Below are positions 36,771 through 39,742 of a stretch of 64,000 bases of DNA, in pieces. The DNA comes from Savitreella phatthalungensis (taxonomy: Eukaryota): positions 124,001 through 188,000 of the forward strand of contig AP039703.1 of NCBI GenBank assembly GCA_051599415.1. Reading direction: 5' to 3'. Numbering within the stretch: the first letter of the stretch is position 1; each line of letters begins with the position of its first letter. A model generated the notes under the pieces. It saw nothing but the letters and a program-made list of their open reading frames with translations. It had not been told where the DNA came from and did not search any database. Made by a program: the position numbers and the translations under genes.

Positions 36771-37427
36771 CTACTTACGGTACCAGAGTCTGGTGGTGCG
36801 TTGAGCTGCCTGCTTCTTTTGGAGAAGGAAGACGCCGTACATGAGTGCTTCTGCTGTTGGTGGGCATCCTGGTACGTAGATGTCTACTGGAACGATTCTG
36901 TCGCATCCTCTGACGACTGAGTAGGAGTAGTGGTAGTAGCCTCCACCGTTTGCGCAGGATCCCATGGAGATGACCCACCTCGGTTCTGGCATCTGGTCGT
37001 ACACCTGCCTGAGTGCAGGCGCCATCTTGTTTGTGAGTGTGCCTGCGACAATCATCACGTCCGACTGGCGCGGAGACGCCCGGAAGATGATACCCAGACG
37101 ATCCTGGTCGTACCGGGGCGCAGACACGTGCATCATCTCTACCGCGCAGCACGCCAGGCCGAACGTCATCGGCCAGATCGAGCCCTGGCGCGCCCAGTTC
37201 ACGACAGCGTCCGCACTCGTCAGCACGTAGTCCACGGCGTTCTTCGGCGTCGATTGTGACGGCAGCGGCATGTCATCCGGCAGAGGCTTCGATGGCAGCG
37301 AAGCCGTCCGTGTCGAGACTGCCTGCGATGCCAGCGCGCGCACGCCGAGTGCAGATGGCGTTGGTGTACCACATGCAGGCCGTGCGCCTCTGGCCAGCAA
37401 GGTCGCCCGTGTAGTCGATCGAAGCAT
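36771..37427 (-). CDS. NDUFS7: NADH:ubiquinone oxidoreductase PSST/20-kDa subunit
   Basis: [33 protein letters not shown] and YVPGCPP; mitochondrial presequence MLRSTTR. Confidence 0.97.
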
Positions 37428-37956
37428 CAGGTGTCTTTGACCCTTGGCCTGTATTGATCTTGTTAAGAGACTCTGGTTCTTTTGTGGATAAGATGTGAGG
37501 TTAACTCGGTACCCTATCCTACGATCGATCGATCGATCGATAGAATTGCGCTGAGGCAAGCAAAATTTAGATGCAGGTGATTGGTTGGAGGGTGAACACC
37601 CGGGTGTGAAGTGGCCAATGATTTCCGATGCACAAATTCAGAAGCAACACGATACATTCATCCACTCGCAGCTCTCACTCTCCTTCAGAGTGCTAGCCAA
37701 GCACGATCCGCGGCGGTCAGGATTCTAAATATTGTGATAATGCTTCGTGGTTTCAAGACATGTCATGTTTAGGTTGTAGAACTTTTGGGTTGTTTTGGGT
37801 AGGGAGAGCGCTGCTTAAGGACAGGCTACAGAGCCTTGGTTCGTCGGCCGATCTTTGGAATCGGTGATAGCCCTAGCCTGTCACGCGTCAAAGACTAGTT
37901 GCAGCAGCATCATTCGTACATTGGCTTGCTCGCTACAGCTTTGACGCGGCCGCGAT

Positions 37957-39132
37957 TCATGAGGACTGCTCGGCAGGCTTGTAACCGACCTGGACGAGAG
38001 CGTTGCGGAGTGCATCGAGTGCCTTGTCGAGGTCACCGCGTGCGAGGTCGGTGGCGGAAACGCCCATGTGGCCGATGCGGAAGTACTTGGTGGCGATCTG
38101 CTTGTGTAGGCCACCTGCGAAGATGACGCCCTGTGCGCCAATCTTTGGCAATAGCTCGCCCACTGGCATCTCGTTCGGAGTCATCACCGCCGTCATGCCA
38201 TGCGCTGCGAACTCCGGCTTCACAGCGACCTGCTTCAGACCGAGCTTGGTGATGGCATTCTTGACGTAGTCGGAAGCCTTGATGTGGTCGTCGAATCGTG
38301 CGGACATCGGCCTCTCGAGAATCTCCTTGAGAGAGGCATTGAGGGCGTAGATGAGCTGGACGGCGGGCGTGGCAAAGTACTTTGGCTCGTTATTCTCGTA
38401 CGCCTTCATGATCGGCACCCACTTGTTGAAGCTGGCAAAGTAGCTCTGTGGCGGGTGCTTGCGGTTGGCGAACGCCTGCATGCCGCGGCCGGACACCATC
38501 AGGATCGCAAGGCCGGCGGGACAGCCGATAGCCTTTTGAGACGCCGTCAATGCCACATCCACACCCCACTCGTCGAACTGGATCTCCTCGCAGGCGACGG
38601 AGCAGACACCGTCAACGCAGATGAGCGTGTCTGGGCTGACGCGCTTGACTGTGGCGCAGATGGACTTGACGTCCTGGAGAACACCTGTGGAGGTGTCTGT
38701 GTGGGTGATGGTGATCATCTTGTACTTCTTCTCCTTAAGCGCCTGCTCGATCTCCTCCTGCGACTGTCTTGCACCGACCTGGGCCTTCAGCTGGGTTGCC
38801 TTGACGCCGTAGGATTCGAAGCAGTCTGCGAAGGAGTCACCGAAGTATCCCGTGTGGAGGACGAGGACGTCGTCGCCCTGTTCTACAAGGTTGACGGCGA
38901 CCATGTCCCATCCGAGAGAGCCTGAGCCGCTAATGACGAAGGGCTGTGATGCGGGGTCCTTTGTGAGGAAGATCTGCCTGAGCAGACGGAGGTTCTCACC
39001 AAAGACTGCGACGAAGGGAGGTCCGACGTGTGACATGGAAGGGTGTGCCATGGCCTCGAGCACGCGATCGCTGAACTCGATCGGGCCGGGAATCATGAGG
39101 AGCGGGTGAGCTGCCTGGTTTGACTTTGACAT
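37957..39132 (-). CDS. AGX1: Alanine--glyoxylate aminotransferase (class V PLP enzyme)
   Basis: LLMIPGP, SGSGSLGWD, THTDTSTG, VDGVCS, TASQKAIG (PLP lysine), YFATP and FRIGHMG. Start at ATG 39132. Confidence 0.95.
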   Translation of the reverse strand: MSKSNQAAHPLLMIPGPIEFSDRVLEAMAHPSMSHVGPPFVAVFGENLRLLRQIFLTKDPASQPFVISGSGSLGWDMVAVNLVEQGDDVLVLHTGYFGDSFADCFESYGVKATQLKAQVGARQSQEEIEQALKEKKYKMITITHTDTSTGVLQDVKSICATVKRVSPDTLICVDGVCSVACEEIQFDEWGVDVALTASQKAIGCPAGLAILMVSGRGMQAFANRKHPPQSYFASFNKWVPIMKAYENNEPKYFATPAVQLIYALNASLKEILERPMSARFDDHIKASDYVKNAITKLGLKQVAVKPEFAAHGMTAVMTPNEMPVGELLPKIGAQGVIFAGGLHKQIATKYFRIGHMGVSATDLARGDLDKALDALRNALVQVGYKPAEQSS

Positions 39133-39381: not shown

Positions 39382-39480
39382 GTGAGTGAGTAGGCGAGTG
39401 AGTAGGTGAGTGAGTAGGTGAGTGAGTAGGTGAGTGAGTAGGTGAGTGAGTAGGTGAGTGAGTAGGTGAGTGAGTAGGTG
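39382..39480. repeat. 12-bp minisatellite (GTGAGTGAGTAG) x8
   Basis: Eight tandem units, one with a single T>C change, upstream of AGX1. Confidence 0.95.
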
Positions 39481-39666
39481 TATGAGTGAGTGAGTGAGTT
39501 GCTGTGGTAGTGCGGGCTATGGGTGGACTGTGAATGGATGATGACCTGGGGAAAGAGCACAGTACAGTACAGTGTTTGGAAGCGATGCGTAGGTATTGAT
39601 CTGTGGAGGAGTTTTAATTCTCCAGTAGCGATCTATAGTATTTGACGTCGATCAGAACCAATTTAA

Positions 39667-39742
39667 TTCTGTTCTGTTCTGTTCTGTTCTGTTCTGTTCT
39701 GTTCTGTTCTGTTCTGTTCTGTTCTGTTCTGTTTCTGTTCTG
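39667..39742. repeat. (TTCTG)n pentanucleotide microsatellite
   Basis: 13 perfect units, one inserted T, then 2 more units. Confidence 0.95.

Follow-up and report, generated by a model that had tools for sequence, protein, structure and literature searches.

Can one fungal gene supply an enzyme to the cytosol and also to peroxisomes when its annotated protein has no peroxisomal signal? The question is raised by AGX1, a gene for an alanine-glyoxylate aminotransferase (AGT) on the minus strand of a 64,000-nucleotide stretch of Savitreella phatthalungensis DNA (contig AP039703.1 of assembly GCA_051599415.1, positions 124,001 to 188,000 of the forward strand), which we analysed as a whole and refer to as the window. 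The TGA stop codon of AGX1 is followed by seven in-frame codons, reading IAAASKL, and then by a second stop, and decoding of the TGA would bring Ser-Lys-Leu (SKL), the form of a type 1 peroxisomal targeting signal (PTS1), to the end of the protein. The comparison with relatives set out below suggests that this tail is probably a cryptic PTS1 derived from readthrough, which would make AGX1 both a cytosolic and a peroxisomal AGT.

The AGX1 stop codon and the tail behind it

On the minus strand the end of AGX1 reads ...GAG CAG TCC TCA TGA ATC GCG GCC GCG TCA AAG CTG TAG, with the protein ending ...EQSS and the whole tail lying at 37956-37936. This arrangement had been reported in a first-pass annotation of the DNA, and its coordinates and sequence were confirmed. 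The locus has three features of cryptic PTS1 signals of the readthrough type, namely a UGA first stop, an extension that is short and in frame, and a PTS1 tripeptide directly before the following stop.

How readily such a tail might arise by chance was gauged in the window itself, using all stop-to-stop segments of 3-15 codons in the six reading frames (n = 1448). An SKL end was found once, in the AGX1 tail, and an end of the looser form [SAC][KRH][LM] seven times (7/1448). Among the 44 ATG-to-stop open reading frames (ORFs) of at least 150 residues in the window, AGX1 alone has a tail of the looser form. Because many windows were screened, a single tail at these rates may be luck, and it is conservation that provides the test.

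The gene itself is readily recognised. The ATG at 39132 opens an uninterrupted ORF of 391 codons whose last codon is 37962-37960. The product matches PF00266 (Aminotran_5) with an E-value of 1.1e-22 and a score of 81 bits, the gathering cut-off being 21.5. Among solved structures the best match is yeast alanine-glyoxylate aminotransferase 1 (2bkw; E 1.3e-93, residues 11-376), and human AGT chains, 3r9a among them, match at E-values of about 1e-34. The segment ‘altasqkaig’ differs from 2bkw at one residue, with the SQKA motif aligned; we take the Lys of SQKA to be the lysine that carries pyridoxal phosphate (PLP). Relative to its homologues, the protein has no N-terminal presequence. The nearest protein clusters, at 73-81% identity, are mostly without names but include Taphrina deformans CCG83974.1 and Protomyces lactucae-debilis ORY87904.1, while named Pezizomycotina proteins are 60-65% identical. 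Since its closest relatives are those of Taphrina deformans and Protomyces, the protein indicates a Taphrinomycete-like ascomycete, and the predicted product is a cytosolic AGX1-type AGT of a Taphrina/Protomyces-like ascomycete.

Post-stop tails in related fungi

The C-termini of annotated relatives were considered along with those of loci from metagenome contigs. Only one of the 217 fetched relatives ends in a canonical PTS1 of the form [SAC][KRH][LM] (P0215, ARL), and none of the nearest 120 does, so that, as judged from these C-termini, a PTS1 in the normal frame is not the habit of the AGX1 family. In all nine of the nearest protein clusters (P0002-P0010) the C-terminus comes 1-6 residues past a GY motif, and eight cluster mates end 1-5 residues past it; the TGA of AGX1 accordingly lies at what these alignments give as the usual family end.

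The scan of metagenome contigs yielded 80 loci, each of which was read in frame from its first stop to the next. A TGA with a tail of 15 codons or fewer and an end of the form [SAC][KRH][LM] was found in 13 of the 80, and two further TGA loci end in GRL (L036) and LKL (L039), endings that were joined to the PTS1 pattern only after being seen. All 15 loci with a PTS1-like tail use TGA as the first stop, and no such tail is present at any of the 47 loci that stop first at TAA or TAG and whose next stop still falls in the locus. A further 13 TGA loci lack a PTS1-like tail, and at 5 of the 80 loci the contig ends before a second stop is reached. Ten distinct tail peptides are represented, that of locus L001 included, and some of the loci are near-duplicates. 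The first-pass annotation had proposed looking in relatives for a conserved post-stop PTS1; the search was positive, with one instance in L001 and 14 in a second fungal clade.

L001 comes from the window's own clade. Its protein is identical to that of AGX1 at 307 of 385 aligned residues (80%), and the nucleotide identity of the coding sequences (CDS) is 0.73. L001 reads ...GYSPN TGA TGC CAG GCG AGG TCA AAG CTG TAG, which again gives seven codons, SKL and TAG. Aligned pairwise, the two sequences agree at all 13 bases of G-TCA-AAG-CTG-TAG and at 5 of the 12 linker bases; past the TAG, nothing convincing aligns. The pattern on this alignment is that of a PTS1 kept constant between a linker and an untranslated region (UTR) that are both free to vary. 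In a maximum-likelihood tree of 57 rows, the Taphrinomycete clade comprises 13 rows (100/100) and divides at its base into the window with P0002 (100/97) and 11 other rows (92/89). L001 is placed among the latter, with Taphrina and Protomyces, and so on the far side of the basal split from the window. The extension is thus conserved, with conservation ending at the second stop, in L001, which is a thin sample for the window's clade.

The second clade consists of soil fungi and forms 11 rows of the tree (100/100) outside all named Ascomycota, with best named relatives at 57-63% identity. Introns in its loci were inferred from split matches. The stop context is TGA CTA in 13 of the 14 loci and TGA CTG in the other (L039), and the UGA CU core is therefore present in all 14. 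According to Stiebler et al. (2014; PMC4207609), UGA-CU(A) is sufficient for efficient readthrough in Ustilago maydis. The tails comprise 7, 8, 10 or 12 codons, with ARL, SRL, GRL or LKL as the last three residues; the peptides are LYGSARL, LHGGARL, LYGRARL, LYGRASRL, LDGRTSRL, LYGGAP[VI]SRARL, LYGREERGRL and LHGRLKL. The differences among them include whole codons as well as synonymous changes (GGC/GGT, GCG/GCT/GCC, CTA/TTA/CTC, AGA/CGG). Among six members with tails of seven codons, pairwise identity averages 0.68 over the last 27 nucleotides of the CDS; it rises to 0.80 over the segment from the TGA to the second stop and falls to 0.24 over the next 27 nucleotides. One protein of this clade, P0143, has Gly at the stop position and ends ...GYDKYGLYARAGRL (GLYARAGRL), and its sequence marks it as a natural fixed read-through form. 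By these comparisons the tails of the soil clade carry the classical marks of a translated readthrough extension.

Other C-termini among the loci deserve mention. In further eukaryote-like relatives PTS1-like ends occur within the normal frame (SKF in L007, SRF in L013 and NKL in L052), and L012 has ASKL followed by QHL. These C-termini suggest that AGT became peroxisomal along several routes. In the same tree the AGT of the amoeba Acrasis kona (P0076) groups with metagenome locus L002 (100/99), adjoining Saitoella, inside the ascomycete part, a grouping that could be due to horizontal transfer or to contamination.

The features of the locus are collected in Table 1. Downstream of AGX1 and on the same strand lies a gene at 36771-37427 (-) for the 20-kDa subunit of NADH:ubiquinone oxidoreductase (PF01058, E 1.8e-27), separated from the AGX1 tail by about 370-500 bases. 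Immediately 5' of the AGX1 ATG the reading frame is open over 39 codons from a TTG start, with no ATG in that part. Further upstream are two microsatellite-like arrays, one at 39382-39512 with about 9.8 copies of a 12-base unit, GTGAGTGAGTAG (+ strand), and one at 39667-39742 with 15 copies of the pentanucleotide TTCTG. A tRNA scan of the window returned 0 genes.

Table 1. Elements of the AGX1 locus, in window coordinates, and the soil-clade loci compared with it
Feature	Position	Strand	Basis or remark
AGX1-type alanine-glyoxylate aminotransferase CDS	37960..39132	-	391 residues; translation, PF00266, 2bkw match
First stop TGA, next base A (TGA ATC); proposed leaky stop	37957..37959	-	unchanged in X6 contig
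Tail linker ATC GCG GCC GCG (IAAA)	37945..37956	-	5/12 bases common to L001 (linker CQAR)
PTS1 codons TCA AAG CTG (Ser-Lys-Leu)	37936..37944	-	L001: identical codons, equal distance from TGA
Second in-frame stop TAG, closing the 7-codon tail	37933..37935	-	also TAG in L001; similarity ends here
Soil-clade loci L003, L006, L017, L019-L023, L025, L027, L029, L036, L039, L041			n = 14

Readthrough weighed against other explanations

In the mechanism that we propose, most ribosomes would stop at the AGX1 TGA and a small share would decode it with a near-cognate tRNA, adding X-IAAASKL. The C-terminal SKL would then serve as the PTS1 bound by Pex5, and the extended subunit would enter peroxisomes, probably with normal subunits dimerised to it, so that one gene would provide for both compartments. 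A useful rate of readthrough at TGA-A, Pex5-dependent import and the piggy-back import of dimers are the presumed parts of this scheme. In yeast, UGA, described as “termination leakiest”, is read through in the order UGA-C > UGA-A > UGA-G > UGA-U according to the base at +4, and UGA-A is reported to favour Trp-tRNA (PMC4748822).

Dual targeting had already been suggested in the first-pass annotation, together with help from a self-complementary tract just 3' of the stop. The comparative evidence supports the former, as a readthrough-derived cryptic PTS1. The latter found no support: the tract, a 10-base palindrome CGCGGCCGCG at 37954-37945 inside the linker, is absent from L001, and the 96-nucleotide fold of the window has z = -0.16, with 85 of 200 shuffles folding at least as well. 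A hairpin aid was rejected more generally, as the 96-nucleotide folds of the window, L001, L019 and L022 have z from -0.16 to -0.92 and none goes beyond its shuffles.

Several observations weigh against readthrough as the explanation of the AGX1 tail. Within the window's clade conservation amounts to one relative, L001, and one near-identical strain. The UGA CU core (CU at +4/+5), reported mainly to set readthrough efficiency in Ustilago maydis (PMC4207609), is found neither at AGX1 (TGA ATC) nor at L001 (TGA TGC). The UGA-U of the latter is, moreover, the tightest tetranucleotide in the yeast data (PMC4748822), and no common stop context is visible between the window and L001. The two sequences also share their codons for S, K, L and stop. 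At identical residues of the two CDS the codon is the same in 6 of 18 cases for S, 15 of 18 for K and 13 of 30 for L, and in 157 of 307 overall; four identical codons would on these figures be somewhat unexpected, if mildly so, and would also fit selection on RNA. Finally, exact runs of at least 13 bases occur six times in the alignment of the two CDS, and therefore one 13-base run alone is not extreme.

The explanation that best survives beside readthrough, although it is unlikely, is that the tail is untranslated 3' UTR, its SKL having arisen by chance or being the decaying relic of an ancestral, efficient TGA-CTA readthrough whose context has since been lost. The missing UGA-CU core in both sequences speaks for it. 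So do the 13 TGA loci without a tail, which include the eukaryote-like L004, L005 and L012, and about 0.5% of short stop-to-stop segments do end in a loose PTS1, with very many windows having been screened. A neutral relic should decay, yet SKL-TAG is intact at seven codons across the basal split of the clade, where the linker (5/12) and the DNA past the TAG have diverged and the CDS is 73% identical. Two independent hits at the loose-motif rate of 7/1448 would be expected about 2 times in 100,000.

Less probable still is that the 13-base block G-TCA-AAG-CTG-TAG acts at the RNA level as part of the 3' UTR, for example as a protein-binding or 3'-end-formation site, to which SKL-stop is incidental. 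The equality of all four codons in the window and L001, set against the 157/307 noted above, would suit such an element. The block is, however, in frame, lies exactly seven codons past the TGA in both sequences and ends in a stop, and no fold exceeds its shuffles. In addition, the PTS1-like ends of the soil clade use other codons (AGA CTA, AGA TTA, AGA CTC), which speaks for selection at the level of the peptide.

Contigs assembled from other sequencing runs bear on the two remaining explanations. The contigs of runs X3-X6 were placed on the window at 80% likeness, and X6 alone spans the stop. This run, from another study and possibly one of RNA, gives a 249-base contig over 37835-38083 with four differences; none is listed in 37933-37959, and the one that is listed lies at 38059. 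The contig without a listed difference at the site argues that the TGA is not an assembly slip of this record. The change at 38059, A>G relative to the window, is common to the contigs of X4, X5 and X6, three runs from three studies; the strain behind them is therefore slightly different, though it belongs to the same species or one very close to it. As for X3, its pieces come from distant homologues, with alignment ending at 38046 and 38060.

A route to the PTS1 tail through alternative splicing or a programmed frameshift, in place of readthrough, is very improbable, even though alternative splicing is reported to yield PTS1 isoforms of the fungal enzymes GAPDH and PGK (PMC3798809) and translational frameshift is cited as a route to cryptic PTS1 signals (PMC9513677). 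Direct reading of the sequence finds no AG from the TGA to the Ser codon TCA, as the first-pass annotation had correctly stated, and the sole AG of the tail, in AAG, would leave just Leu-stop. Splicing into the tail was accordingly rejected for want of an acceptor; the X6 contig has no joint across the stop, at the level of contig evidence, and the tail is in frame 0, so that no frameshift is needed.

Least credible of all is that the TGA reflects a mistake in sequencing or assembly, or a nonsense mutation private to the strain, in a gene normally ending ...SKL. There is a single assembly, and the two best runs containing the stretch may be its source, but the X6 contig from another study has no listed difference at the site, L001 has a TGA at the homologous position and all the nearest protein clusters stop 1-6 residues past the GY motif. 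The alternative offered in the first-pass annotation, a recent nonsense change that removed an ancestral PTS1, falls on the same ground, given the ends of P0002-P0010, the single PTS1 among 217 relatives and the homologous TGA of L001.

Readthrough of the TGA remains, then, the preferred explanation of the AGX1 tail, and a broader proposal may be put more tentatively, as a possibility somewhat short of even: that in two or more fungal lineages AGX1-type AGT has been conserved as a client of readthrough, with the tail of the Taphrina/Protomyces lineage under selection without a known readthrough context. If this were true, basal leakage well under a few percent would be enough for selection to act on, given SKL as the strongest PTS1 and the co-import of dimers. 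Alternatively, the Taphrina/Protomyces lineage would have a readthrough determinant not yet described. The pairing of an efficient context with the weaker [AS]RL in one clade, and of a poor context with the optimal SKL in the other, would in that case represent a trade-off through which the share of enzyme in peroxisomes is adjusted.

AGT as a proposed client of readthrough

The mechanism itself has well-described parallels. In Ustilago maydis, the genes for Tpi1, Pgk1, Rpe1 and Art1 are reported to have, like AGX1, a TGA, a short in-frame extension, a PTS1 and a second stop (Stiebler et al. 2014, PMC4207609; Freitag et al. 2012 via PMC3798809). There too a cytosolic metabolic enzyme sends a minor isoform to peroxisomes, as is proposed for AGX1. 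The soil-clade homologues of AGX1 share the TGA CTA context with the Ustilago maydis genes, from which the window and L001 differ in having TGA-A and TGA-T, respectively, in place of TGA-CU; the client enzyme also differs, being apparently new. A PTS1 isoform of an oligomeric enzyme produced by readthrough, as suggested here, is likewise described for human LDHB and MDH1 (Schueren et al. 2014, PMC4359377; Hofhuis et al. 2016 via PMC9513677), although there the genes come from an animal and the context is UGA CUA, and AGX1 is a fungal gene with TGA-A. Readthrough of 1.8% (LDHB) and 4% (MDH1) is reported to suffice for the peroxisomal isoforms (PMC9513677).

Within the enzyme family, human AGT and Magnaporthe oryzae AGT1 are peroxisomal by way of their C-termini. 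The human protein is a Pex5 cargo (3r9a; PMC3798809), and the C-terminal 46 residues of AGT1 are reported to carry eGFP to peroxisomes (PMC3338719). The signals of these two proteins lie in the normal frame, human AGT having a non-canonical PTS1 and AGT1 a putative ‘QKA’, whereas AGX1 has an optimal SKL behind its stop. Saccharomyces cerevisiae Agx1 (2bkw), which was compared by protein only, conserves the PLP-lysine motif. What the first-pass annotation had said of the TGA-CTA context and of human AGT agrees with the relevant statements in PMC4207609 and PMC3798809.

With regard to novelty, the words ‘aminotransferase’, ‘glyoxylate’ and ‘transaminase’ are absent from the main text and four supplement files of PMC4207609. 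A literature search by titles and abstracts found no published readthrough of AGX1 or AGT in fungi; the supplementary lists of Freitag et al. 2012 might bear on this. AGX1-type AGT thus appears to be new as a client enzyme of a readthrough-PTS1 mechanism that is itself known.

The localisation of AGT varies between species, and mistargeting of the human enzyme leads to primary hyperoxaluria type 1. Placement of AGT in peroxisomes by readthrough in a fungal lineage would add an enzyme to the few readthrough-PTS1 clients that are proven or likely, and would link glyoxylate detoxification to them. Genome-wide screens filtered on TGA-CT, such as that described in PMC4207609, would have missed the AGX1 tail. 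A tail kept without the UGA-CU motif would serve as a natural experiment on the least readthrough that selection can detect, or on the efficacy of other contexts. For annotation, the lesson is that a fungal AGX1 protein may be partly peroxisomal even when its annotated sequence is scored as having no PTS1.

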